DNA from: Carcharhinus longimanus
Lineage: Eukaryota
Direction: 5' to 3'
DNA length: 64,000 nt
Assembly (NCBI GenBank): GCA_030264375.1
Contig: JASCQW010000061.1
Span: forward strand, 118,896,150 to 118,960,149
The translations under genes and the position numbers were made by a program. Below the pieces are notes generated by a model. It was not told where the DNA came from, did not search any database, and was given only the letters and a program-made list of their open reading frames with translations. Positions 7,566 through 56,049 of the stretch are shown here, in pieces (position 1 is the first letter of the stretch; the number at the start of each line of letters is the position of its first letter).

Positions 7566-8598
7566 AATATGAAAAAAAGAAAGTATTTTAGTATCATAGT
7601 GATGTTTGCTGGTGATTCGCCAAATCATTGATGACTTTTCGTGAGTTATTTTCACTGTGAGAAATGAAAATATTTCGGTGCTTTTAACAAAGTGTTCACA
7701 ATTATTTTTAAAAGCTAATATATTTTGGTATAGGTATGGAAATTGAGCAGTACCCACTACAGTCCAGCATTATTCTCAGACTTGCTTTTGCTTCGCCAAC
7801 TGTGGTCCTTATCAGTATTCTTTGAATATGTTTGACGGTGTGATTGCACTAGGTTACTATCACAACTGAGGTACCGTACACAGTTTTGGTCACCAAATCT
7901 AAGGAAAGATACTGCTGTAGTTCAAAAGGGCAGCTGAGCATCGTCTTCTGAAGAGCAATTAGGAATGGGCAGTAAGTGCTGGTCTAGCCAGTGATGCCCA
8001 CTTCCCATGAATGAATTAAAAAATGACTAATATTATGCGCCAGGGATTACTTGGGATGTGCACCACTTCTATCTTCTTCAAAAGATAAGTACTGTATTAG
8101 ACCAATATGGTATATTGGTAATAAATGAATAGATTTATCATACATAGAAAAGATAAGAGTCAGCAAGAAATTAAAACAGTAAGAATGAAATCAATCCAGA
8201 AAATGTTAAATACTCTTTGTAGAATGTGTTTATTCCAATGTTAGACAGGTTTTTTTGGACGAAAGTCTTTCCACATCTTGAAACCGTGTCGTGCAATACA
8301 TAAGTGCCGTCATTCCCAAGTTGATTTGTGGAATCCAGACATTGATTCAGGACTGAATTAAAGATGTTGGGAATAGTATCTAGTGTTCAGATCAAAGGCT
8401 CTTAGAAACAGCACTGTCCGTCAACCATAATCAAAAGTGCAATGGAGAATATTGTTGCATTGAATAACGGATGAACTGTTGTCGTTGTTGTGGACCCTAA
8501 CTCTTAACAGTTCCACAGTTCTAATTCAAACTCAAACAAGTCCTTGTATTTTGTGTTGATTTAATTTATAGACCAAACATCCTGGCTCTCGTTTGACA

Positions 8599-9255
8599 CA
8601 GTAAGAAGTCTGACAACACCAGGTTGAAGTCCAACAGGTTTATTTGGTAGCATAAGCCACAAGCTTTTGGAGCATTCATTAGGTGAGTGGGAGTTGTGCT
8701 CACAAACAGGGCATATATAGACAGAAACTCAATTTACAAGATAATGGTTGGAATGCGAGTCTTTCCAGGTAATCAAGACTTAAAGGTACAGACAGTGGAG
8801 TGAATGGAGAGAGGGTTAAGCACAGGTTAAAGAAATGTGTATTGTCTTCAGTCAGGACAATGAGTGAGATTTTGCAAGTCCAGGCAAGTTGGGGGGGTGA
8901 CAGTGTGACACGAACACAAGACCCCCCAGTTGAGGCCATTCTTATGTATGCGGAACTTGGCTATCAGTTTCTGCTCCGCAATTCTGCGTTGTCATGTGTC
9001 GTGAAGGACGCCTTGGAGAATGCTTACCTGAAGATCAGAGGATGAATGCCCGTGATTGCTGAAGTGTTCCCTGACTGAAGAGAGCATTCCTGCCTGGTGA
9101 TTGTCGAATGGAAGTCACAACTTCCACTTACCTGATGAAGGGGCAGTGCTCCCAAAGCTTGCGGCTTGTGCTACCAAATAAACCTGTTGGACTTTAACCT
9201 GGTGTTGTGAGATTTCTTACTGTGCCCACCCCAGTCCAACGCCGGCATCTCCACA
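8599..9255 (-). mobile_element. Penelope-like retroelement insertion with inverted terminal copy
   Basis: Minus strand encodes a GIY-YIG C-terminus (EHFSNHGHSSSDLQVSILQGVLHDT*QRRIAEQKLIAKFRIHKNGLN). ~75-nt inverted repeats at 8599-8675 and ~9147-9224. 12-bp TSD tct(c/t)gtttgaca at 8587-8598 and 9256-9267. Confidence 0.88.
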
Positions 9256-12155: not shown

Positions 12156-12612
12156 GGGTGGCATGATGGTACAGTGGTTAGCACTGCTGCCTGACAATGC
12201 CAGGGACCCAGTTTCAATTCCAGCCTTGGGTGACTGTCTGTGTGGAGTCTGCACGTTCTCCCTGTGTCTGTGTGGGTTTCCTCCGGGTATTCTGGTTTCC
12301 CCAGTCCAAAGGTATGCAGGTAAGGTGGATTCGCCATGCTAAATTGCCCATTCCTGAAACAGGATGTGTAGGTTAGGATTAGTTTAAGTTCAAAGTTAAT
12401 TTATCAGAGTCACAATCAGGCTTACATTATCACTGCAGTGCAGTTACTGTCAGATTATATTAATACTGCGGTGAAGTTACTGTGAAAATCCCCTTTATTT
12501 AGCAGGTTAAGTAAGTAGGGTTATGGGGATAGGGCCTGGTGCGAAGGTCTATTGGAAAGTTGGTGCAGACTAGATGGGCTGAATGGCCATCTTCTGCACT
12601 GCAAGAATTCTA
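12156..12612 (+). mobile_element. HE1-type V-SINE (tRNA head) with nested antisense tail fragment
   Basis: Head gtggttagcactgctgcc...gggacccagtttcaattcc (A/B boxes), V domain gtctgtgtggagtctgcacgttctccctgtgtctg, and tail gatgggctgaatggccatcttctgcactg. Confidence 0.88.
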
Positions 12613-22734: not shown

Positions 22735-23350
22735 GAACATTCCTTGTTTCAGTACTACTCGGGCCTGCTCCCTCAACTCTTTTTCTTTTGCATTGATGAC
22801 TCTATTGGTGCCGTTTCATTCTCTCACCTTGACCTGGAAAAATTTATCGATTTTATTTTTGCTTTCAATTTCCACCTTTCACGTGCTCCATTTTGACGGT
22901 TTCCTTCCCTGACCTTTCTCTCAGTTTCTGGTGATAGACTGACCCAGTAAAAAGTCTGACAACACCAGGTTTAGTCCAACCGATTTATTTGATAGTAAAC
23001 GCACAAGCTTTCGAATACTGACCACCAGTATTCATTACAAACTCACTGACTCCCACAGCTATCTCAACTTCAGCTCCGTATACTCTGATTCCTGTAAGGA
23101 CTCCATCCCATTTTCCCAGTTCCTCCGCCTTCCTCGAATCTATTCTGATGATGCCCTTTCCACAATGATGAAAATTGTGCTTCTGACANNNNNNNNNNNN
23201 NNNNNNNNNNNNNNNNNNNNNNNNNNNNNNNNNNNNNNNNNNNNNNNNNNNNNNNNNNNNNNNNNNNNNNNNNNNNNNNNNNNNNNNNTTTTTGGTTTCC
23301 GGCTCTTCGCCCCCCCCCCCCCCGCTTCCAAATTCATCCTCTGTCATTTC
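22735..23350 (+). mobile_element. Penelope-like RT fragment nested in CR1
   Basis: SLFQYYSGLLPQLFFFCIDDSIG (YIDD-type RT motif) and ..SIHYKLTDSHSYL.., typical of Penelope RT; spans a 100-N gap. Confidence 0.75.
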
Positions 23351-24267: not shown

Positions 24268-24612
24268 GGCAGCATATTAGCGCAGTGGTTAGCTCTGCTG
24301 CCTCATAGCTCTGGGGACTCAGGACTCAGGTTTGATTCCAGCCTCGGCTGTCTTTCTCTATGGAGTTTACACATTCTCCCCATGTCTATATGGGTTTTTG
24401 TTTGATGCTCCAGTTTTCTTGGGCAGTCCAAAGATGTCCAGGTTAGATGGATGAGCCATGTTAAATTGGCCCTTACTTTGTGTGAGTATAAATATGTGCC
24501 CTGTGATGAACCGGCATCCTATCCTGGGTGTACTCCAGCTAACAGCCAGCGCCTGTCAGGATAGGTTCCGACTCCCTGTGACCTTGAATTACAGTGAGCA
24601 GTTAGTGAAAGT
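24268..24612 (+). mobile_element. V-SINE (HE1-like head) with a different, teleost-like tail
   Basis: Head gcgcagtggttagctctgctgcctc plus V domain. Tail tgtgccctgtgatgaaccggcatcctatcctgggtgtactcc...ggataggttccgactccctgtgacc. CR1 sequence gattgggg repeats on both sides. Confidence 0.75.
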
Positions 24613-33334: not shown

Positions 33335-33620
33335 GGTGGCAAAAGTGGTTAGCACTGCTGTCTCTCAGTGCCAGGTCGATTCCCGGCTTGGATCACTGTC
33401 TGTGTGGAGTCTGTACATTCTCCCCGTGTCTGCATGGGTTTCCTCCAGGTGCTCCAGTTTCCCGCCGCAGTCCGAAAGACATGCTGGTTCGGCGCATGGC
33501 CATGCTCAGTTCTCCCTCAGTGAGCCCAAACAGGTGTTGGAGTGTGCGAACTAGGGAATTTTCACAGTAACCTCGTTGCAATGTTAATGTAAGTCTACTT
33601 GTGACACTAATAAATTTTAA
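33335..33620 (+). mobile_element. V-SINE with third tail type
   Basis: HE1-like head and V domain, then tail ggaattttcacagtaacctcgttgcaatgttaatgtaagtctacttgtgacactaataaa. Confidence 0.8.
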
Positions 33621-36159: not shown

Positions 36160-36425
36160 GGACCGGCTTCAGGTCACTGTTTGTGTAGAGTTTGCACATT
36201 CTCCCCGTGTCTGCGGCGTTTCCTCTAGGTGCGCCGGTTTCCTCCCGCAGTCTCCAAAGATGTGCGGGTTAGGTTGATTGGCCACGCTAAATTGACCCTA
36301 CTGTCAGGAAGATGAGCAGGGTAAATGAAGGTTATGGGAATAGGGCCTGGGTGGCATTGTGGTTGGTACAGACTTAATGGGCCAAATGGCCTCCATCTGC
36401 ACTATAGGGATTCTATGATTCCATG
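36160..36425 (+). mobile_element. HE1 V-SINE, 5'-truncated
   Basis: V domain gagtttgcacattctccccgtgtctgc and tail gggccaaatggcctccatctgcactatagggattctatgatt. Confidence 0.85.
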
Positions 36426-36714
36426 AAAACTATGGGGAGAGATAGAATTTAAGCCACAATTCCTTTGTACTGGAGTCACTCCTTCCATAATGCAATATTC
36501 CCCATTAAAGTCCATATGTTGAACGGCAGAAATTTCCTCTCTGGCTAGCGTTCTTGATGTTCCAAAATCTTCTGCCGTTTTAATTTTTTAGCAGCGTTCA
36601 TCATCATGTCGTGTTTCACTCCCAATCTGGATTTTCAACGTCTTAAGTCAACGAGAATAATGAATAAAAATGTTCTTTAAAGTAGGAAAAAATAGTCCAT
36701 CATGTGTATTTTTA

Positions 36715-39667: not shown

Positions 39668-39835
39668 TTCAGTACCAAATGGAAATGATGAGAAGTTTGC
39701 GTCATGTTAATATTGACCACCTCCACGTCGGCTGGTACCAGTCAACTTGCTATGGTTCTTTTGTCAGCCGAGCTCTGTTGGACTCCCAGTTTAGTTACCA
39801 ACACGCAATTGAAGAGTCTGTGGTCCTCATCTACG
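39668..39835 (+). CDS. EIF3H: eIF3 subunit H, internal coding exon (human exon 3 equivalent, MPN domain)
   Basis: Translates (V)[55 protein letters not shown](D), near-identical to vertebrate EIF3H. Acceptor ttttcAG at 39666-67, donor GTcagt at 39836, 168 nt, phase 1/1. Confidence 0.97.
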
Positions 39836-41599
39836 GTCAGTGACGTTTTCCTATTCATTTCTTCTACTTTACTGTTTACCTGGCAGTGCTGCCTGGCAGC
39901 CCCTCTCAGTAAATACCAACCCAGTGTCTGCCTCAGCCCCAGCAGCAGCTCAGTCTAGACAGGGTTTCCTTCTTTCTGTTTATTTTTCTTGCTATCAGAG
40001 CCCTGATGTGTACATTCTGGAATGTTAAAGTTGCTGCTTCATTTTTTTTTTCATTCCTCTTCCCCCTTGTTGATGGCGGGTGGAACAGGACCAGATGTCT
40101 AACAAAAACTGATTGCTTGAGTCTGGCTCAGTACGTGACCTTACAGTTATGACACATTTTGCCAGATTTCTCCTTTGACAGGCGCTCACAAAACGTAGAC
40201 TGTTCTTAGCACAAAGATTTTCTTCTTTCTGCCCATTTAGTGGCGTTTCCTTTACTCACTAAACCAGATGTTCTGTGCAGTATCATAGCTGTAGGTAAAA
40301 CATCTTTATTGCCTTCCCCAAGCTCACTATTTGCCATAGCTGGCAGCGTGTTACAAAGTTTCCAACTGAGAAGTAAATGTTACATCCTGAATATCTGTCA
40401 GAAAAAATACTAATGAACACGATTAATCTTTGGGTAACACAAAAATTGTTTCAGTATGTTAACAATCGGATTACAGTAGAAAAGCTGTTAAAATATACTT
40501 TATTCGTTGGAATTTTTTAAAACATTTCCTCCTGAATTTTCCATTTGTATCAAATTCTCTGTTCTACATCATTACTTATACATAGGAATTTGTTTTGTTT
40601 CTCTTTCTATTCAGTTTTTTTTGAAAATTATTTTGCATGGTTCCTCCCGAGTTTAGCAAATACGATTAATAGGGAAATAAAACCTGTGCACCTTGAAAAT
40701 GGTATTGTAGAAAATGTGACTAAATCCAACTGTATTTTATCAGAAGAAAACGTGAAGAAATGCATCTGTTTAAGCACAAAGCTGAGATTACATTAAAATA
40801 AATTGATAACGGATCTGAGATAAATTGATTTCACTGTAAACATATAGATTTACAATCTTCAGGTTAGATGTATGGATTAAATCTATACATGGTGGTGCAA
40901 TGGCAGATTGCGTTATTATGCCAATGTGGTTTAACATAGAAGATACAATAATTTTCCACACCATGCATTTTATGAGAAAGGTAGGGAAACTGAAGCTGCT
41001 ACAAATAGATTTTCTGTATCTCCCTGTGGACTTTCTGTCCAGCCCTTCCTATTCAGAGAATAGTCTTCACGCTGATGGGATAAAAGCCAAATTTGTCACT
41101 TATAAGACAATTGTGAATTATATACTCTTGTGAATATTTGATATTGCTGGATACTTTTATTTCATTTTCTGGATACTGTATCATCTTTAAGCATTCCCAG
41201 GTCTGTCTGGTTTAGTATGATTTAACTATATTGTCAAGTTCTCTTTACTCTGCCTCAATATGCCTCAGACTGTCCTCTGAAGAACACATTTCCCATTTCC
41301 CCCCAAATATAGATGTTTGAGAATCAGATTCTCTTTACCGATTTGTAGCTTTTACTCCCCAAGGCAGATTTTGTTTCAGATGCATTTCAATTCATGGTTC
41401 AAGAGGATTTCTGGAGTTTGATAGATCTGACCAGGAATATAAAATAGAACAGTGGATATTTAGTTTCCTATCAAAGCAACTCGCCCCATCAGTGCAAGAG
41501 CTCTCATTATGCAGNNNNNNNNNNAAAGTTCCCCCCCCCCCCCCCCCCCACCAAGTATAGAGGTGTCACTTTATCAATCATAGATTCCATTAATGTAGG

Positions 41600-43290
41600 C
41601 TTTCATTTATTCATGGGCTGTGAGTGTTGCTGGCAAGAGTTATTACCCATGAGAAGTTGATGGTGAACCACCTTCGTGAACCACTGCAGCCCACCTGATG
41701 AATCTCCTTCTATAATGGTGTTAAGGAGGGAGTTCCAGAATTTCAGACCAGCGACAGCGAAAAGGCAGTGGTATATTTTCAAATGAGGGTGGTATGTCCA
41801 AAGATGTGAGGGTCAGGTTGGTTAGCCTTGATAAATTGCCAAATAACTTGTTGTCCAAAGGTGTGCTGGTTAGGTTGATTGACCATGATAAATTGCCCCT
41901 TAATGTCAGGGAGATTAGGAGGGTAAATATGTGGGGTTACGGGGATAGGATTGCTGTCAGTGCAGGCTTGATTGGCCAAATTACCACCTCCTGCACTGTA
42001 GATTCTGTGTGACTTGGAGAGGAACTTGGAGTTGGTTGTGTTCCCATGCACCTGTTGCCCTTGTTTTAGATCATAACAATCGTACATTTGAGCAATGCTG
42101 TTGAATGAAGATATCTTGCTGAGTTACTGCAGTGCATGTTATAAGATTGGGCAGCACTGTGGCATAGTGGTTAGAGCTGCTGCCTCACAGTGTGTCAGTG
42201 TGAGTTTGCTCCAGGTGTTGTGGTTTCTTCGCACATCTGGACATCTGTCCAAAGATGAGCAGGTTAGATGGATTTACCATGCTAAATTGCTCCTTAATGT
42301 GTTGGTGGTGGAGGGAATGACTGTTTAAAGTGGTGAATTGGATGCCAGTCAAATGGGCTGTTTTGTCCTGGATGGTATTGGGTTTCTTGATTCGGCACCG
42401 ATCACACCATGGTATCCTAGCCAATATTTATCCATTATTCAACAGATTACCTGAAGGTTATCATGTTATTGTTTATGGCATCTTACTGTGCGCAAATTGC
42501 CCATCAGATTGCCTGGATTATAACGGTGACTGCGCTTCAAAAGTATTTCATTAGCCAATAAGCACTTGGGATGACCTGAGGTTATAAAAAGCATTATATG
42601 AATGAGCGTTGTCCTTTTTCCAGACTTGTGCCTTGTAGGTGGATGGAAAGTATTGGAAGTCAGGAGGTGAGTCAGTTGCCGGTATCGAGCTTCTTAGAAC
42701 CACAAAACTTATGTGACTGGTCTGGTTAAATTTCTGATTAATGGTGAACCACGCCAGGATGTTGATGGCAGGGATTTCATGCTAAAAATGCTGTTGAATG
42801 TCAAGAGAAGTTGGTTAGATTTTCTATTGTTGGAGATGGTTGTTGCCTGGCACTTGGTATATCATCTATGTTACTTCCATTTATCAGCCAAGTCTGAATG
42901 TTGTCCAGATCTTGCTGCATGTGGGCATAAACTGCTTCATGATCTGATGAGATGTGAATGGTACTGCACAATGATTAGCAAACATCTTAACCTCCACCCT
43001 GGGACGGGGGGGTGGGTGTGTGTGTGTGTGCCCGGAGAGGATTGATAAAGCAGCTGAAGGTGGTTGGGCCAAGGACACTGATATCTATAACACCTGCAGG
43101 GATGTCTCGTGGCTGAAACAATTGGCCTGCAACAGCAACAACCATCTGTCATTGTGCCAGATGTGACTCCAGCCACTGGAAAGTTTTCTCTCTGATTCTG
43201 ATCAGCTTCAATTTTGTTAGGTGCCACACTCAGTAAAATCCTGCCTTGATGACAAGGAAAGTCACTCTCACCTCACCGCCTGTTCAGCTC
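41600..43290 (-). mobile_element. CR1-like LINE 3' portion with nested HE1 fragments (41790-42010 +, 42150-42300 +)
   Basis: Collinear with 15745-16615. Interrupted by HE1 pieces (duplicated tgtccaaagatgtg..ggttg..gataaattgcc; head gtggcatagtggttagagctgctgcctcacag). Confidence 0.72.
42410..42610 (+). mobile_element. Deu-domain SINE 3' half
   Basis: tcctagccaatatttatcc...tcttactgtgcgcaaattg...cttcaaaagtatttcattagcc...gcacttgggatgacctgagg, the Deu/L2-tail pattern. Confidence 0.7.
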
Positions 43291-43774
43291 TTCAGTCTTG
43301 GGATATTGGGTGAAAGGTCTGATTCTGAGACTGTATTGCTCAACTAGCCTGTGGCCAGCTCTTCCTTTGTTGGCATATACCCTCAGATGTTAATAAGGAG
43401 ACCTTTCAGGGCTGACTGAGCCTTTGTCATCACCCAAACTAAAGCCTGGGTGGATGCAGGGTGGTTTTATTCCTATACTTGTCATAGTGGTTTAATACAA
43501 CAAAGTGACTCATAAGTCCATAACAGAGGGCAGTCAATTACATTGCAGTGGGTTTGGAATCACATATAAGCCAGTAAGCGCAGTAGATTTTTCCTAAAGA
43601 AATTTAGTACATACAGTTTTTTTTCTTTCATGAGATATGTGCATCTCTGGCACGGTCAGCATCTTTTGCTCAGCCCTAATTACCTTGAGAGTGTTGGTGA
43701 ATTGCCTCCTTCAATCACTGCAGCCGATCTGTTGTAGATATACCTCTTTGAGGAAATAAGTTATCTTGATTCAA

Positions 43775-43930
43775 AGAATCCCTTCAGTACAGAAGGAGGC
43801 CATTCAGTCCATTGAGCCTGTGCAGGCCACAATCCTACCCAGGCCCAATTCCTGTAACCCCACACATTTACCCTGCTAATCCCCCACACACTAGGTCAAT
43901 TTAGCATGGCCAGTCAACCTAACCAGGTGT
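43775..43930 (-). mobile_element. HE1 SINE 3' part
   Basis: agaatcccttcagtacagaaggaggccattcagtccattgag...caatttagcatggccagtcaacctaacc is antisense HE1. Confidence 0.8.
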
Positions 43931-44489
43931 TTCAGCCTGTGACCTTTCACCAGAAAGGGATGAAACCTTTTTCACCTCNNNNNNNNNNNNNNNNNNNNNN
44001 NNNNNNNNNNNNNNNNNNNNNNNNNNNNNNNNNNNNNNNNNNNNNNNNNNNNNNNNNNNNNNNNNNNNNNNNNNNNNNNNNNNNNNNNNNNNNNNNNNNN
44101 NNNNNNNNNNNNNNNNNNNNNNNNNNNNNNNNNNNNNNNNNNNNNNNNNNNNNNNNNNNNNNNNNNNNNNNNNNNNNNNNNNNNNNNNNNNNNNNNNNNN
44201 NNNNNNNNNNNNNNNNNNNNNNNNNNNNNNNNNNNNNNNNNNNNNNNNNNNNNNNNNNNNNNNNNNNNNNNNNNNNNNNNNNNNNNNNNNNNNNNNNNNN
44301 NNNNNNNNNNNNNNNNNNNNNNNNNNNNNNNNNNNNNNNNNNNNNNNNNNNNNNNNNNNNNNNNNNNNNNNNNNNNNNNNNNNNNNNNNNNNNNNNNNNN
44401 NNNNNNNNNNNNNNNNNNNNNNNNNNNNNNNNNNNNNNNNNNNNNNNNNNNNNNNNNNNNNNNNNNNNNNNNNNNNNNNNNNNNNNNNN

Positions 44490-45640
44490 ATTGAAGTTGT
44501 GTCGGTCCACGCAAGTGAAAAGTAATGCATCACAGTCTTCCGTTGTGCCTTGTCAATGGTGTGCAGGCTTTGGGTAGTTAGGAGATAAGTTACTAGTTGC
44601 GTAATTCCTGCTGTTGTAGTCACAATATGGACATGATTGACTGAGCTATGTTTCTGATCAATAGTAACACCAAGGATGTTGATAATGAAGTATTCAGTGG
44701 TGGTAATGCTGCTGAACATCAGGGGGAGATGGTTAGATTTTGTCTTGTTGAAGATACCATTATTTGACATCCGTCTTATTTGCCACTTAACCCAAGCCTG
44801 AAAGTCGTCCAGATCTTGCTGCAAAAGAATGTGAACTACTCAGTATCTTGGGGAGTTGCAAATTGTAATGAACACTGAAGTCATCAGCACACACTCCCCC
44901 ATTCCTCCTGGGATGTCCTGGGGCTGAAATGATTGGCCTGCAACAACTAGAGCCATTAACCAGTGGCGTTTTCCCATAATTCCTAACAACTTCAATTTTG
45001 CTTGGGCTCCTTGAGGCCACACTCTGTCTACTGTTGCTTTGATGAATACTTATTATGGATATCTTTCAGTACTTCATTTCTAATCAAAAAGCTAATTCAA
45101 ATCAAGTCAAATCATAGTCCCCACATGAGGGACAAACAACATCCAAGCTGATGAGACATAGCATCCCAACTTGGGCTCGATCAAACAAGATCCATGCTGA
45201 TGGGGTGAGGCATTGCACCCTCTCCCGGGCTTGATCGAATGCTTCATCTTAGCCAAAAGGCCGAGATGGCTTTGGAAAAATTGCATCAGGTAAAGTCTCG
45301 GTTTAACCTCATTGGCTGCCTTGATCCTTTGCTCTACCCTAGCTTAGGCAAACGATGATCTCAGGCGTGATACCTTTCTTTGCTTTGTTGATGATTGAGA
45401 GTAAACTAATGAGATGGTAATTGGCCACATTGGATTTGTCCTGCTTTTGTGGATAGGAGCTGCCTGGCCAGTTGCCCACACTGTTAGCTAGATGCCAGTG
45501 TTTTAGCTGTACTGGAACAGCTTGGCTAAGGGTGTGGCTAATTTGGGAGTAGATCTCTTCAGTCTCACCCATTGGATTGCTCTCAAGGCCCATATCCGTT
45601 TCTGTATTCAATTCGTTCAGCTGATTCTTGATATCGACAG
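44490..45640 (-). mobile_element. CR1-like LINE RT fragments flanking the U2-derived element
   Basis: ORFs give QQDLDDFQAW..INILGVTIDQK and QDKSNVANYHLISLLSIINK. Confidence 0.72.
45084..45266 (-). other. U2 snRNA-derived element (candidate U2-headed SINE, variant U2 or pseudogene)
   Basis: Minus strand 45266-45246 = TCTCGGCCTTTTGGCTAAGAT, identical to U2 nt 7-27. Followed by two diverged copies of the U2 ~25-65 segment, a gtccc-7nt-gggac hairpin (IIb-like) and GCTTTTTG (Sm-like). Confidence 0.8.
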
Positions 45641-46254
45641 TTTGTGTTCATTACATGATCACTGTTATTGATAAAAACATACAGATTTATTACTGAATTC
45701 AGATTCACCAACCACTGTGGTAGGATCTGAATTCATGTCTCAAGATCATTGTTTAGTACAGTAACATAACTAGTATGCAACTGTTCCTGGGAACAGGGCC
45801 ACAGAAAAATGTTGGATAACTGCATATCCTTCTTTGTGTGTGATATCAAAATATAATATTAATCACTCTAAACAGTGCACACTGTAGAAATTAGATGCAG
45901 CTCCAAATGTCTATAAATAAAAGTTAGAGATGAAAAAGATTTCATCCATTTCTCGTGAGAGGCCACAGGCTGAAATGCCAACTTTGCATAATCTGCTGAG
46001 TATTTCCAGCATTTTTGTTTATAAATTGTCCTCTACCTTAAAACACTGGGGCAACCTATGTCTGTTTTTTCACGTGTCTTTGTCAAGTATCCTGTAACTA
46101 GAGAAGTATAATCATCGTGAGAATCCAATATGACCAACACAACCATAACTTTTTCTCCGATAGAATTATATAATTTGAATCGTTATTTTTCTGCTGATAC
46201 ATGTGTGATTTAAAGAATAAACATGCTCTTTTTTTCTGTTCTTAATTTTTCTAG

Positions 46255-46354
46255 ATCCGATTAAAACTGCACAAGGTTCTCTGTCACTGAAGGCATACAG
46301 ACTGACTCCAAAATTAATGGAAGTTTGTAAGGAGAAAGATTTCACTCCTGAAGG
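46255..46354 (+). CDS. EIF3H: eIF3 subunit H, internal coding exon (exon 4 equivalent)
   Basis: Not in the ORF track. Reads (D)[32 protein letters not shown](G). Pyrimidine tract plus ctAG acceptor, GTaagt donor at 46355, 100 nt, in frame with the previous exon. Confidence 0.97.
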
Positions 46355-47939
46355 GTAAGTTTGTCCACAGGGAAAAGTTAAAGAAAAGCCTATTACCCAA
46401 AACTTAACACTGGTTTGAAATCCATTTAACATTCTGGAAACACCCTTTCAGGCACTATTTCGGTTGATTTAGAAATTGCAGTCAAATTGCTCAGTGCAGT
46501 AATGCAATTTGTTTGTATTGACTATTCTAAAATTGGTTTTATGAACCATGAAAGCAGAGCCTGCGACCTCTCTGGATTCACATGCTGCAGTTTTATTATC
46601 TGCATTCTTCATTTACAGTTTGTGTTGCTTTTACACTTTTTTTCTGAAAACCTACGCATCCTTACAAAATATCAGATTTAAACATAAACTCAAATACTAG
46701 TTCTCTATTTTCCACACGTTGGCCAAATTTAAAATGCTGCGATAACTTCTTTCTGTACCTATCAATATTTTGCAAATAATTGAACAATTTATGTCAACTG
46801 CTGCTGTCACCCCTCCTCAAACACTCCAGTAAACCAGATTAAATCATTCATAGATAAATCATTCTTATCTAATCTGCAAATTGTTGAAAGACATATGCAT
46901 TCTGTCTAGGCTTTGAGGCATGAAGAAAGGCATTGCTAGCACAAAACCTTTTCTTACCTTGTCAGCAGCATATATAATGCTGCCACTGTGCTATCAACAT
47001 TGCAGTTAAACTAAAGAAATATTGTAAATAATTAATAAAAAGAAAATCAAGTAAAGATCCTTCGTTCTATCACACCAGGTCTAATGCATCTAACTTGCCA
47101 GGCTGAAGAAACTGCATTTGTGCAGTGCAATGCTTTTAATGATAAGCAGCTTCTCTCACAGTTAATAGTTCTGTTACTGTGTCACCTATTGGTGGAGCTG
47201 ATTGAAAGGAAAGGCTGTATCCCCTGGATTTGTATTGTGCCATATTGAGGTATATTACAATATACATTTTAATTACATTTTACTCCACAAACCACATTTC
47301 TAAATAAATTTAGTTGTAAACAATTGCTGGTATTAATTTATCTTCTACAAAATTATTCCTATTGTAGCATTTTATATTTCAATGAAAAGCAATTTATTTT
47401 AATATATTAGCTTCAATCAACCAGTATTGCGTTGGCACACTCATAAATCTCTTAATCTTAGCATAACAGAAGAATTCACACAAAACTTTTATGGTTAATC
47501 CTAATCAAATTGAAGAATGTTTACACAACTGTATCACAACGGAATGCCTCACAGATGCAGGAAAACTGCTTAATCCATCCAGTCTTTTTGACTGAATAGT
47601 TCATTCCTGAAACTTCCTAATTTTCTTTTTTATTAAGTATTTGTTTGTCAGTGATATCAACAAACGTGTATATGGAGTTGGTGCAAGACTTTCTCCATGT
47701 TTAACTAAATGCAAGCTGTAAAGCCTCAGGAAGAAATGCTACTGAAATCAGATTCACCAGTACACGGGTTAAATGCTGTGCCATATCTAGTTCTGAACAA
47801 TGCAGCAGGCCTGCAAGTATCTGAAGTTCGGACTCCAGTTGGGAAATAGTGACCATAACCTCATCATGTCTATTCATTCAATGGATGAAGAAAAAGAGGA
47901 TTCAAAGATGCATTGACTAATGTCAGTGGAATGAAAAGG

Positions 47940-50729: not shown

Positions 50730-52020
50730 TTTTAATTCTTGAGATGTGGGCATTGCTGGCAAGGCCAGCATTTATTACCCATCCCTAATTGCTCATGAGA
50801 AGGCAGTAGTAAACTGCCTTCTTGAACTCCTGCAGTCCATGTGCTGCAGGTATACTTACAGTGCTCTTCAGATGGGTATTCCAGGATTTTGCCCCAGAAA
50901 CAGTGACGGAACGGCGATTATAGTTTCAAGTCAGGAAGGTGTGTTGCTTACAGGTGATGGTGTTTTCACGTGCATCCCGACTTTGCTCTTACAATAGAGG
51001 TCAGAAGCTTCTGCCGAAGATGTCTTGGCGAGTTGCTGCAGTGCTTCTTGTCGATTGTACATGTTGCTGCCACTCTGCACTGGCGGTAGAGAGAATGAAC
51101 ATTTAAGGCAGTAGATGGGGTGGCAACAAGTGAGCTGCTATTCCCTGAATGGCGTCAAGTTTATTAAACTGTTGTTGGAGCTGCAATCACCCAGGCCAGA
51201 GGGAAGTATTCCATCAACTCCTGACTTGTGGACATGCTCTAGGGAGCGAGGAGATGTGTTAATCGAACAAGCTGATCCAATTAGGTTTCTGGTCGATGGT
51301 GAGTCTTGCAATATCAAACGATGGTAGCGCTGTTAAATGTCATGTGGCGTGGTTAGACTGTCTTTTGTTGTGGGCATTCATTGTTTGGCAAGACAACTAC
51401 TTGCTACTTGTCAGTGCAAACCTGAATATTATCCAGGTTCTGCCTCACACAGCCACTGCCGCTTCATTATCTGAGGAGTTGTAAATGGAACTCTAACACT
51501 GAGTNNNNNNNNNNNNNNNNNNNNNNNNNNNGATGGTCAATAACAAAGCAGGTGAAGAAAGTCGGGCCGATCTTCAGGAACTCCTGGAGCTAAAATGATT
51601 GACTCAACAACTGTATTCATCTTCCTTTGTGCTAGTGATGACTCAAACCAACAGAGAACTTTCCCCCTTATTCCCATCAACTTCAGTTTTTGGGCTCCTC
51701 GTGCAAATGCTGCCTCGATGTTAAGGTTAGTCACTCTCACCTCCCCTCGCCTCTGGAATTGAACTCGTAATGTCCATGATAAGGCTATGATGAGGTCTGA
51801 ATATGAATGGTGCTGGCAGAACCCAAACTGATGAGTTTATTAGTGAGTAATTGTTAGTTGATATCACTGTCAGCAATATTTCCCATTACTTTACTGATGA
51901 CTGAAAGTAGGCTGATTGGCCAGATTGGATGTATTCTGCATTTTGTGGACAGAACGTGACCTGGACAATATTTCACATTGCCATGTCGACGCTAGTATCG
52001 CAACTGTATTGGAACACCTT
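50730..52020 (-). mobile_element. CR1-like LINE 3' portion
   Basis: Antisense tail gatgtgggcattgctggcaaggccagcatttattacccatccctaattgc. ORF QKLKLMGIRGKVLCWFESSLAQRKM. Confidence 0.8.
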
Positions 52021-52720: not shown

Positions 52721-52870
52721 AATAAAGAAGGCACTCATTACTTCTGAGAATATGTTTGAAGAAGTGCCCATTATTATCAAGAATTCTCACCTCGTCAATG
52801 TGCTGTTGTGGGAACTGGAAGAAAAATCGAATGTGGCTGAAAAACAGGAACTCCTCAATCTGGCTAGTGG
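52721..52870 (+). CDS. EIF3H: eIF3 subunit H, internal coding exon (exon 5 equivalent)
   Basis: (G)[49 protein letters not shown](G). ctAG acceptor, GTaagt donor at 52871, 150 nt, phase 2/2. Confidence 0.96.
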
Positions 52871-55041
52871 GTAAGTCAGCTTTCTTTCATCTACTTGTTT
52901 TTTTAAGAACATGTCTTTTTGTAAATTAAAACTGCCAGTAAAAGTTTCCATCTTATTGGCATTTGTAACAATGTTGGGAGATAAGTTCCTCATTATTTAG
53001 GCTTGTTTTGTTGACATAACTGAAGGTGAATAAGCCTTCATTAGTGTTGCTATGTTTTTGACCAGTTATCACCATGGTGGCTTTTGCAGCACCAGCTGTT
53101 TGCTTAACAAGGGGTTTTGCAATGAACATTTTCCTCTTTTCCTTTCCTGTTTGCAACAGTATGAGCCTCAGGCAGTGGTTGTTCTCCATTACCTAACCCG
53201 TGGGGCCATTCCTGTGTGCGAATCTCGACACTAAGTTGAGAGGGACGTCACAGCCAAGCGCAATTGTGACCTCGCTCAGTGTCCGTTTACAAGGTCGAAA
53301 AGGGGTGTTTGCAAAAGGTTCAGAAGTGGAAAGCTTAGGTGATTTTTCCTTGCCCCCAGTACAGTGCAGCAGAAGCTGTGTGTAGCACCTGTGCTAACAT
53401 CCAGCATGGCATCAAGTAAGGATTAAATCTTGAATGTGTGTTTTACGCTGTTCAGGAGTTTTCCAAACATCTTTTCCCTCTATTAGTACTTTTCTCCACG
53501 TGCATGCATTCCTTAGTCAACCTTGAATTTGTGAACAGCATTGCCATTTGTGCTAATATATAATGTATCCATTCCATTATACTTCATATTTCATCTGAAA
53601 CCAATATTGTTTTAGATTTTTTTGTACTGAAAGCAGTACTTGTAGGTTTCATTAATTTTTTTTATCAGTGGAGCAGCCTCTGCTGTTTACACAGCACGAA
53701 ATAATAGAACCATAGGAAGGTTACAGCAGAGAAAGAGGCAATTCTAGCTGCATCAAGTTCATAGCCTTGCAGGTTACAGCACCTCAGATGCAAATCCAGA
53801 CATCTTTTAAAAGGGTTGAGGATTTTGTCTCAGCCATTAATGCAGGCTATGATTTCCAGACACCCACCGTCCTCTGGGTGAAAATATTCTTCTAATAACC
53901 CCTCTAATATTTCTACCAGTCATCTTAAATCTGTGTCCCTCAGTAACTGACCTCTGTGCTCGGGGAAACAGATCCCTCCTGCCTAATCTTACCTAGCCCT
54001 TCATAATTTTGTACACCTCAATCAAATTAAACCCTCAGCCTTCTCTATTCTAATGAAAACAACTCTCGAATATCCAATCTTTCCTCATAGCTGCAATTTT
54101 TCAGCCCTAGCAACATTCTTGTAAGTTTTTTCTGTGCCCTCTTTCCAGAGTATTTATGTCCCTTCTGCAGTGTAGTGATCAGAACTGTATGCAAAACTCA
54201 AGCAATGGCCTAAGTGTTTCATACAGTTCCAGCATTACATTGTTGCTTCTATATTCAATATGTCATCCAGTAATGAAAAGCACTCCAAATGCTATCTCTA
54301 CCACCTTATCTACTTTCTCACCACCTTCAGCGACCCATAGACATGCACTCCAAGGTCCCTTATTTCCTGTAACCGTCTCAATATCTTCCCATTTATTGAG
54401 GATTCCCTTGCTTTGTTTGCCCTCACAACATGCATCACCTCACCCTTTCCAGATTGAATTCCATCTGCCACTCCCCTGCTCACTCATTGATATCATTCTG
54501 GAGTCCACCGCTATGCTCTTCACTGTCAATTACATGGCCAATTTTTGTGTCATCGGCAAATTTCCCAGTCAATCAATTTCCCACATTTAAGTCCAAACCA
54601 TTAATATATACAACAAACAACAAGGGACCCAACACAGCCTGGTGGAATGCCACTGGAAGGTCCTTTCCTTTCGCTAAAACATTGATCAGTCATTACTCTT
54701 TGCTTTCTGTCACTGAGCCAATTTTGAGTCCAACTTGCCACATTCCTTTGTATCCCCTGGATTTTAATTTTTCTGATCAGTCTGCCGTGTGGGATCTTGT
54801 AAGATGCCTTATTAAAATCCACGTGGACCACATTCACTGCATGACCCACCTCGTCCTACTCGTTACTTCCTCAAAAAATTAAATTATTCTAGTAACACAT
54901 GACCTTCCCTTAAGAAAACCATGCTGACAATCCCTGATTAATCTGTGTCTTTCTAAGTGATAGTTTATCCTGACTCTCAGAATTGATTCTAAAAATTTTC
55001 CTACCACTGAATCAGATTGACCATCCTATGTTATTCTTTGG

Positions 55042-56049
55042 TGTTACGATCCCAGTTGCTGTTACTCCAGGACAGGAGAGTCCCAGAACCTTGGTTCTAA
55101 AGGCAGCATTCAATCCAGCCACCAATTGCTTCACAATGGCCTCAAATTTTACTTCACAGGTTGTAATAAGATGGCACCAATCTTAGATATCTCTGGTTTC
55201 TCACAAGCCATCTTCAGCAGGTTTGATCTTTTCAGCTCTGTCTTTAACTTCAATGAACAGTACCCATTCCAGTTCTAGTTACAGAATCCCTACAGTGTAG
55301 AAGTCTGCACCGACCACAACGCTACCCAGCCCCACGTGTTTAATCTGCTAGACCCCCAACACTAAGGGGCAATTTAGCATGACCAATTAACCTGATCCGC
55401 AACGCACATCTTTGGTTTGTGGGAGGAAACCCATGCAGACACGGGGAGAATGTGCAAACTCCGCACAGACTGTGACCCAAGCCGGGAATCGAACCTGGGT
55501 CCCGAGTACTGTGAGGCCGCAGTACTAGCCACTGTGCCACCGTACCGCCCGTGTTCTCTTGTTCCTTTAACTTCAGTTTCCGGGAATTTATTTTTTCATT
55601 CCCTGGTTTCTCGGACTAAATGCCCTTTAGTTTCTGGGACTTGTGTTCTTGCCCATTACTCCATTCTTCTACTTCTGCTTCTGGAGGGCTGAGACTGCTG
55701 ATTTCTCTCTAACTGCCAAACTCCTGCTGTCTGACTACAACTGAACTAATAACACCTCGTCTTTTACCAAAAGATGGCCGATGGTTGCTAAGCAACAGCA
55801 CATTCTTTTTCCAGGCTTTTGTTTACCTTTCACGTTGTACACTCTCCAAGCACAATAGAAAGAGAGAGGGAGCTTAAAATGAAACTAGAAAGCTCATACA
55901 TGCCATCACTTTTGTTTAACATGAAGTTAACTAGAGTTTTACCCTTTCTTATACAGAAACACTAAATTAAACCCACTTAAATCTATACCTTATTTCTATT
56001 ACCCAACGCTGCTAACATCGATCACTTAAAACTATTCTGCTTCTTGACA
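55042..56049 (-). mobile_element. Probable solo LTR
   Basis: TG...CA ends (tgttacga / tcttgaca) and 4-bp TSD ttgg at 55038-41 / 56050-53. Removing it restores CR1 continuity. Confidence 0.65.
55280..55550 (-). mobile_element. HE1 V-SINE, full head, inside the LTR
   Basis: Minus strand gggcggtacggtggcacagtggctagtactgcggcctcacag..gggacccaggttcgattcccggc, V domain and HE1 tail. Confidence 0.9.

Follow-up and report, generated by a model that had tools for sequence, protein, structure and literature searches.

A composite insert of U4- and U2-derived snRNA pieces within a LINE copy in an EIF3H intron of a cartilaginous fish

The EIF3H intron and the extent of the insert

The stretch of DNA analysed here (64 kb; hereafter the window) carries exons of EIF3H on its plus strand, and one of the EIF3H introns holds a 324-nt insert built of small nuclear RNA pieces (Table 1). 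That the element lies in an EIF3H intron had been part of the original prediction, and exon mapping bears this out. Its antisense orientation with respect to EIF3H (minus strand in the intron of a plus-strand gene), its LINE surroundings, and a 5' extension of ~100 nt that includes a U4 piece were all absent from that prediction. A comparison with 15 EIF3H proteins, three of which have no row for the exon near 52722, bears on the identity of the host. In a protein alignment, 48 of 50 residues of this exon are those of Callorhinchus, Mobula, and Leucoraja, whereas only 33–39 of 49 residues match in nine bony vertebrates. Judged by this exon, the host of the insert is a cartilaginous fish.

Table 1. 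Features of the EIF3H intron and of the insert (positions in the window)
Feature	Positions	Strand	Basis or remark
EIF3H coding exon	39668-39835	+	upstream of the element-bearing intron
EIF3H intron with the element	39836-46254	+	exon mapping
Next EIF3H exon	46255-46355	+	3' end approximate
Further EIF3H exon	~52722-52871	+	protein comparison
Left flank, decayed LINE reverse-transcriptase copy	45370-45525	-	~75% identity to other window copies
Right flank, same LINE, ~165 nt further on	44705-45045	-	LINE-copy alignment
Whole non-LINE insert, 324 nt	45046-45369	-	LINE stops and resumes on either side
5' interrupted hairpin	45318-45366	-	folding z -2.2, 7/200 shuffles; B-box match at its end
U4 5' stem-loop (kink-turn) piece, U4 nt 25-47	45295-45317	-	Rfam and by-eye match
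U4 Sm-site match, 9 nt with T5 (45280-45276)	45276-45284	-	by eye; next base not the consensus G
U2 head, nt 7-31	45242-45266	-	24/25 identical; T4 loop 45258-45255 kept
A-box consensus match	45245-45255	-	arises from the sole change in the head
B-box consensus matches	45326-45318, 45236-45228, 45182-45174	-	one per GATCRAG repeat
Unit 1, duplicate of remodelled U2 nt 25-66 region	45183-45236	-	alignment to unit 2
Unit 2, remodelled U2 nt 25-66	45134-45182	-	alignment to U2
U2 stem IIb, 6 pairs	45117-45133	-	both arms identical to U2 gene L039
10-nt tandem duplication in spacer preceding T run	45094-45113	-	9/10
T5 at Sm-site position, allowing for the 10-nt duplication	45086-45090	-	U2 comparison
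A-rich end, 38 nt, 18 A	45046-45083	-	unrelated to U2 stem-loop III

The insert is bounded on both sides by the same LINE, putatively of CR1/L2 type. The LINE breaks off at 45370 and picks up at 45045 with ~165 nt missing, as judged from two other copies in which the bounding sequence runs continuous. Self-BLAST finds at least four other partial copies of the flanking repeat within the 64-kb window, and a single copy of the insert. A sister LINE copy (51540-51836) reaches an Atlas score of 0.95 to RVT_1 clusters, in which 39% of the members carry RVT_1, and the best Atlas score of the right flank is 0.88. Five flank fragments gave no Pfam match from which to name the LINE clade; a protein search was likewise blank. 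The right flank carries four deletions of its own within 340 nt (24, 49, 42, and 15 nt), and one end of the insert may therefore have been lost later. The idea that the insert is simply decayed LINE was rejected, as it does not align to the lost ~165-nt stretch (493, 99, and 65 of 500 shuffles were equally good).

Read 5' to 3', the insert consists of a hairpin, the U4 5' stem-loop, a U4 Sm-like T5, the U2 head, units 1 and 2, stem IIb, a second T5, and a final 38 nt. Pieces of U4 and U2, all in sense orientation on one strand, stand together within 250 nt, and duplications with periods of ~50, ~90, and ~10 nt are nested among them. TRF does not report the two units, and the folding of the insert as a whole is ordinary (z -0.61 on the minus strand, -1.36 on the plus strand). 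The lack of a visible target-site duplication (TSD), noted in the original prediction, agrees with inspection of the insert ends, where the only likeness (11/12) is between two different LINE positions. No tRNA was found in the element, and no coding remnant was found in the insert. The longest open frame, of 78 aa (45343-45110), has no credible homologue and no candidate among proteins of similar length. Its one HMMER match (P0121; 30% identity, 43.7 bits over six stretches) most likely sums weak matches to a repetitive protein. Weak Rfam rows for U8, U3, snoMe28S-Gm3113, and TtnuHACA15 (E 0.58–7.6) were dismissed as chance.

Searches for further copies were directed mainly at prokaryotic collections. 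A degenerate motif of the body (units 1 and 2 with what follows them) has 0 matches in prokaryote genome contigs, a blank that says little for a collection that is not eukaryotic. Two plasmid records matched over 25 nt with E 1 and no phage record did, and these results, again from prokaryotic collections, carry little weight. The non-head parts of the insert have no BLAST match among the 45 U2-bearing loci used. The insert is a real, non-chance snRNA mosaic, larger and odder than first described, and the evidence for each of its parts is taken up below.

The U2 and U4 pieces

U2 references were obtained by a 21-mer scan of prokaryote genome contigs, which yielded 49 loci of contaminating eukaryote DNA. 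We examined 45 of the 49; Rfam assigns U2 to 18 of the 20 submitted to it, and 15 full-length U2 genes entered a shuffle test and five a background-window test. The perfect 21-nt match to U2 nt 7–27 on which the original prediction was built is confirmed at 45266-45246. When the whole window is searched with a profile built from three U2 genes of vertebrate type, the head comes up at E 2.3e-4. The suggested check with the Rfam U2 model (RF00004) also recovers the head, though weakly (E 0.15 and 0.041; 20.3 bits versus a gathering score of 46).

Stem-loop I in the head is longer by two pairs, with changes on both sides of the stem, and its predicted folding energy is -13.2 kcal/mol versus -9.8 for U2 gene L039 (z -3.25). 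Such an extension would result if the hairpin were under selection, and equally from template-guided repair of a near-palindrome, a known mutational mechanism. The intactness of stem-loop I had been read as a sign against simple decay, but by itself it needs no selection. LINE copies ~75% identical to one another imply a decay of ~12–15% each, and at that rate the chance of seeing at most one change in 25 positions is 0.18–0.09. A Fisher test of the head against the LINE flanks (p 0.015) was set aside because copy-to-copy distance doubles decay.

The two tandem units that follow the head were placed correctly in the original prediction. They are related at 38 of 49 columns, and 0 of 4,844 random adjacent pairs score as high; neither unit folds better than its shuffles. 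The question of whether this body descends from U2 was addressed by scoring unit 2 and its tail against U2 nt 32–112, a range that has nothing in common with the head, with 6,148 genomic 99-mers as background. The number of background windows scoring at least as high was 0 for U2 gene L039, 7 for L030, 10 for L003, 49 for L036, and 1,012 for L043. These counts should be read with the choice of genes in mind, as four of the five had been the best scorers of the earlier shuffle test, in which at most 8 of 1,000 shuffles were as good for four of the 15 genes and 35–917 for the others. The match is colinear: it starts at the point where the head breaks off and runs as far as the Sm position. Profile HMMs without the head do not detect the body, a covariance model without the head ranks it fourth of ten over 30 kb (E 3.7), and Rfam run on the body alone (45078-45190) does not report U2. 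Unit 1 alone has no significant alignment to the U2 5' domain of vertebrate-type genes, and its U2 ancestry follows from its likeness to unit 2. On these sequence comparisons, the body is probably derived from U2.

Several details of the predicted alignment fared unevenly. Both units had been aligned to the GATCAAG..ATCAG segment of U2; this is partly supported for unit 2 with its tail (in the best case, none of the 6,148 background windows) and fails for unit 1 taken alone. The insertion of ~10 nt per unit does not stand as predicted: one alignment puts it at 12 nt for unit 1 and at 7 nt for unit 2, and another needs none inside the branch region of unit 2. The reading GCTATG of the branch-point motif in unit 2 likewise hinges on the alignment chosen. 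Stem IIb, which was said still to pair, is indeed a real hairpin. Its arms are identical to those of L039, so the pairing is inherited, without compensatory change; stem IIb sequence varies among U2 genes, yet the arms equal those of this one gene.

The contrast between head and body is sharp. The head retains 24 of 25 U2 letters versus 16 of 35 over U2 nt 32–67 in either unit (Fisher p 3e-5), and in 12 of the 35 columns, in one chosen alignment, both units share an identical non-U2 letter. These 12 letters place the remodelling of the body ahead of its duplication. The claim of a pre-existing, remodelled template is upheld by both observations, and the head would be either a later addition or a constrained part.

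At the 3' end, the base ahead of the T5 at the Sm position is C instead of the conserved A. Nothing beyond it matches the U2 3' domain in alignments and profiles, in keeping with the predicted absence of stem-loops III/IV. The final 38 nt, either a decayed tail or filler, reach E 0.18 at best against the rest of the window. No poly(A) tail was found there, the longest run of A being three; later deletion or decay could mask a former one.

The 5' part of the insert has two components. The interrupted hairpin shares 17 of 24 positions with the U2 head and the start of unit 1 of this same insert (56 of 12,391 genomic 52-mers are as good) and is possibly an older duplicate of them. The U4 piece, in which one C-stem pair is broken, was found with the Rfam U4 model at E 5.7, 1.6, and 7.9 against all 4,227 families (12.3 bits versus a gathering score of 46), which falls short of significance in an all-family scan. 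By our own estimate, the E value of 1.6 comes to ~4e-4 for a single family once it is divided by their number. By eye, 20 of 23 letters, 13 of them consecutive, match the U4 sequence printed in an excerpt of PMC13253345, and the corresponding U4 stretch is a kink-turn according to an excerpt of PMC2952850. What makes the piece persuasive is that it adjoins a U2 piece. By-eye likenesses of the 5' 100 nt to U1, U5, U6, U12, 7SK, and a tRNA D-arm were left out of the evidence.

Origin of the insert

At roughly even confidence, we prefer to read the insert as a single copy, old and probably inert, of a short, non-autonomous retroposon that is similar to the SINEU elements of crocodilians and was assembled from snRNA pieces added one after another. 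Excerpts of PMC4494074 describe SINEU as short elements that grew by repeated 5' addition of U1 or U2, through template switching, and by partial duplication; Tx1 LINEs mobilised them in trans, other transposons served as targets, and insertion may or may not leave a TSD and may truncate the target. A first step, moderately well established, was the copying of a U2 5' domain as far as its Sm site and the divergence of this copy from U2, and the part from the GATCRAG motif onward was evidently duplicated after that divergence. A LINE reverse transcriptase jumping between templates may then have put a fresh U2 stem-loop I and the U4 kink-turn and T run at the 5' end. An older LINE copy in the EIF3H intron would then have received the composite RNA by reverse transcription in trans, with a LINE of the Tx1/Keno type as the most plausible agent; no mobilising LINE was identified. 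The ~165 nt of host LINE that are gone would have been lost at insertion or via later deletion. Such a deletion may have taken one end of the element too, which would account for the missing TSD and tail. The kept hairpins would aid stability or recognition by the mobilising machinery. Against the SINEU-like reading stand the single copy in the window, the lack of a poly(A) tail and of a TSD, the profile searches that miss the body's likeness to U2, and the non-significant U4 match. Simple 5' addition also predicts that preservation should be best in the outermost 5' parts, and it is not.

An alternative that we regard as unlikely, and the best placed of those considered, is that the insert is the stranded 5' UTR of an autonomous LINE of the Tx1/Keno/Utopia type with an snRNA head, the rest of which was removed by a later deletion together with the 165 nt of host LINE. 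Four crocodilian Tx1 families have U1 or U2 heads, as reported in excerpts of PMC4494074, and U2 5' ends fused to foreign DNA occur among our fetched loci (L033, L005, L010, L017, and L025). The host LINE already has four deletions of 15–49 nt in 340 nt, and a single further deletion would cover the missing tail, TSD, and LINE stretch. However, the U2 genes that Keno and Utopia target are divided at nt 38/39 and continue unaltered from nt 39 as the 3' flank, in the account given in part of PMC4640811, whereas the head here ends at nt 31 and U2 nt 32–67 are ~46% identical. The insert has neither a coding remnant nor an upstream U2 promoter.

Slightly less probable still is a single-copy chimeric retropseudogene, for which the host LINE reverse transcriptase would have jumped from LINE RNA to snRNAs and back to LINE 165 nt further on, with local duplication and decay to follow. 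The snRNA pieces and the LINE have the same orientation, the LINE loss falls exactly at the insert, and the window contains no second copy. Template-switch chimeras of snRNA and LINE are known, also with L2 in platypus (excerpts of PMC4476161), and such chimeras are typically unique events (excerpts of bioRxiv 10.1101/2025.02.02.635956). One event from cellular snRNAs predicts pieces of equal age, but head and body differ (p 3e-5). This difference and the 12 shared derived letters mean that a pre-diverged template would be required even for a chimera. Moreover, the chimeras described in the available parts of PMC4476161 and bioRxiv 10.1101/2025.02.02.635956 consist of an snRNA and a 3' LINE part, rather than lying within a LINE with nested duplications.

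It is also doubtful that the master of the SINEU-like element was a Pol III gene. A U2 copy would have gained an internal type-2 promoter, with its A box in stem-loop I and its B boxes at the GATCRAG repeats. The duplication would have brought a B box to 62 nt from the A box, and the transcript would have run from about U2 +1 to the T5 of the former Sm site. This is a special case of the SINEU-like reading, and the small probability that we give it is partly counted within that reading. Exact matches to the standard A- and B-box consensus motifs are present here, and neither occurs in any of the 15 real U2 genes; the B box of unit 2 follows the A box by 62 nt. A+B pairs at 30–93 nt spacing number three in the window versus 0.54 expected in shuffles; one other of the three, at 55539, falls in the window's common SINE-like repeat. 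The likeness to U2 stops at the T5, and a Pol III stop there would explain the absence of stem-loops III/IV. Terminator-like runs also occur inside the insert (T4 at 45258-45255, T5 at 45280-45276). SINEs with internal T4/T5 exist, with termination dependent on context, according to an excerpt of PMC4758252. Against this, the boxes are short consensus motifs recognized post hoc, and, given U2 ancestry, two single-base changes suffice to create both. The A-box change is accounted for equally well by the extension of stem-loop I. A GC-flanked T4 is retained at the start of the A box, and excerpts of PMC4494074 exclude Pol III for SINEU on the strength of such runs. The insert also reaches 96 nt 5' of the predicted start.

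The functional half of the original prediction, that the element might be a variant U2, found no support, and we consider it highly improbable that the insert is an expressed U2 gene whose branch-point specificity has changed. Stem-loop I and IIb pair and a T5 stands at the Sm position, but nt 32–67 are near-invariant in eight aligned U2 genes and 19 of 35 letters are altered here, letters invariant in 8/8 of these genes being among those broken. Stem IIa is broken, the Sm consensus is gone, and stem-loops III/IV are missing. The proposed search for an upstream PSE and DSE turned up no octamer, the upstream DNA being LINE, and no convincing PSE. Matches to the PSE region were 8–11/22 upstream of the head, with one of 15/22 upstream of the insert edge; those between U2 loci were 10–14, which makes for a weak comparison. 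To judge from its sequence, an RNA from the insert is unable to act as U2 in splicing.

The least credible of the alternatives, with next to no probability in our estimate, is an intronic guide RNA, either a scaRNA or a snoRNA, that would be encoded on the plus strand and pair with U2 and U4. snoRNAs are common in the introns of translation-factor genes, the U2 and U4 pieces have their complement on the plus strand, and there is one near-C-box at 45148, but an exact box C is absent, no box D stands behind either antisense stretch, no Rfam match reaches the gathering score, and the element sits within a LINE copy. Complementarity over whole hairpins, colinear with U2 over 100 nt, points to copying. 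A hammerhead ribozyme on the plus strand was also rejected.

Relation to known snRNA-derived elements

Excerpts of PMC4494074 report SINEs with snRNA heads in crocodilians only and none elsewhere, and in their available parts PMC5381603 and PMC5786205 mention SINEU only through that crocodilian paper. Our search of the open-access literature in PubMed Central and bioRxiv found no snRNA-derived SINE of cartilaginous fishes and no U4-bearing SINE; Repbase and Dfam lay outside this search, and the element may already be catalogued there. We entertain, as an unlikely reading, a multi-copy family of U4+U2 retroposons in cartilaginous fishes that would have acquired Pol III boxes by point changes and duplication and would use the old Sm site as terminator. 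If such a family exists, SINEs would have arisen from snRNAs a second time and independently, here with U4 as a module, and the family would offer a handle on how elements of this sort get transcribed when they have no internal promoter. The existence of a family in cartilaginous fishes would mean that spliceosomal RNAs have become mobile elements more than once and that U4 can be used for it. If the A and B boxes work, they would show how an externally promoted RNA gene can become self-transcribing. A single-copy insert would be an unusual pseudogene and of little interest; a multi-copy one would be a SINEU-like variant.

Among genuine snRNAs, the insert is like U2 (RF00004) and U4 (RF00015) in its stem-loop I, stem IIb, position of the T run, and U4 5' kink-turn stem-loop, but unlike them it is missing the branch region, stem IIa, the Sm consensus, the 3' domain, and the promoter. 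It shares with snRNA/LINE chimeras, as described in the available parts of PMC4476161 and bioRxiv 10.1101/2025.02.02.635956, a sense-oriented and 3'-truncated snRNA beside a LINE. Those chimeras mostly involve U6, in contrast to the two snRNAs, nested duplications of unequal age, and LINE on both sides found here. With the Tx1-Mar LINEs, Keno (of the Tx1 clade), and Utopia it has in common a U2 5' fragment followed by other sequence and a variable 5' junction (excerpts of PMC4494074 and PMC4640811). Unlike Keno and Utopia as these excerpts present them, it has no ORF, its junction lies at U2 nt 31 rather than 38, intact U2 sequence does not follow on its 3' side from nt 39 onward, and it is not inside a U2 gene. 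A classical Pol III SINE would have A and B boxes at a usable spacing, as predicted here at 62 nt, but the insert differs in having T4 and T5 within the unit and in lacking a TSD or a tail shared with a LINE.

The closest parallel is SINEU, and the comparison made in the original prediction proves apt, since partial duplications and added snRNA heads are both described in the excerpts of PMC4494074. The element would work like SINEU but cannot be assigned to it: it has no poly(A) tail, a feature of all SINEU groups in the same excerpts, and is known from one copy in the window. Further differences are that the U2 head is internal, with the U4 piece and a hairpin 5' of it; that a U4 piece occurs where SINEU has U1; that the target is a LINE reverse-transcriptase copy, rather than the Mariner-N4 recorded for SINEU in PMC4494074 (in part); and that the body, probably derived from U2 nt 25–106, is strongly remodelled. 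The host here is a cartilaginous fish, and the insert has A- and B-box matches, whereas the excerpts of PMC4494074 state that no A/B boxes were found in SINEU and leave its transcription open. The two are alike in being noncoding and shorter than 500 nt; in their short U2 5' head (32 bp in SINEU-3, in excerpts of PMC4494074; nt 7–31 here); in being composites of snRNA pieces with partial duplications and internal oligo-T, which those excerpts also record for SINEU; and in standing within another transposon whose sequence may be truncated at the target.

Flanks of the insert

The U4/U2 snRNA mosaic carried by a decayed LINE copy (the insert, minus strand) is loosely bracketed by an 11/12 direct repeat. 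This repeat was considered as a target-site duplication and ruled out, because it joins two different LINE positions; it could be the microhomology mark of a deletion or of a template jump.

Other features of the window

The short repeat, present in many copies, is presumably an HE1-type tRNA-derived SINE of sharks and rays, and the copy at 55539 has a spacing of 34 nt from A box to B box (motifs of the Pol III internal promoter). The open frame remnant may resemble the C-terminal portion of a Penelope-like reverse transcriptase. The listed EIF3H exon encodes Cys where all of the compared vertebrate proteins (15/15) carry Tyr or Phe, reflecting either a species change or an assembly error.

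Coordinates of features in the window
Feature	Position	Strand	Remark
Short repeat	12156-12340, 24280-24477, 33335-33517, 36163-36431, 41852-42009, 55365-55550		copies 70-82% alike
Open frame remnant	22943-23190	+	tentative likeness
Stretches related to remnant	8594-8698, 9116-9224
EIF3H exon	39668-39835	+
Direct repeat arms	45380-45391, 45034-45045

U2 genes in prokaryote assemblies

Scanning a prokaryote genome collection for the 21-mer of U2 nt 7-27 (loci L001-L049) revealed eukaryote U2 snRNA genes within the assemblies, in some cases tandemly arrayed next to 5S rRNA, tRNA or U5; their source is host contamination of MAG bins. At L004, L026, L029 and L040 the U2 branch-point region deviates from letters that are invariant elsewhere, and some of these four carry tandem partial duplications of the U2 5' end. 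L040 (295-484) nevertheless scores 150.8 bits as a full-length U2. These copies are either an independent parallel to the insert or natural divergent U2.

At each of L033, L005, L010, L017 and L025, the 5' end of U2, roughly 28-47 nt long, abuts foreign DNA, followed at L033 by a possible ORF start. Such junctions have the layout expected from U2-targeting retrotransposons.
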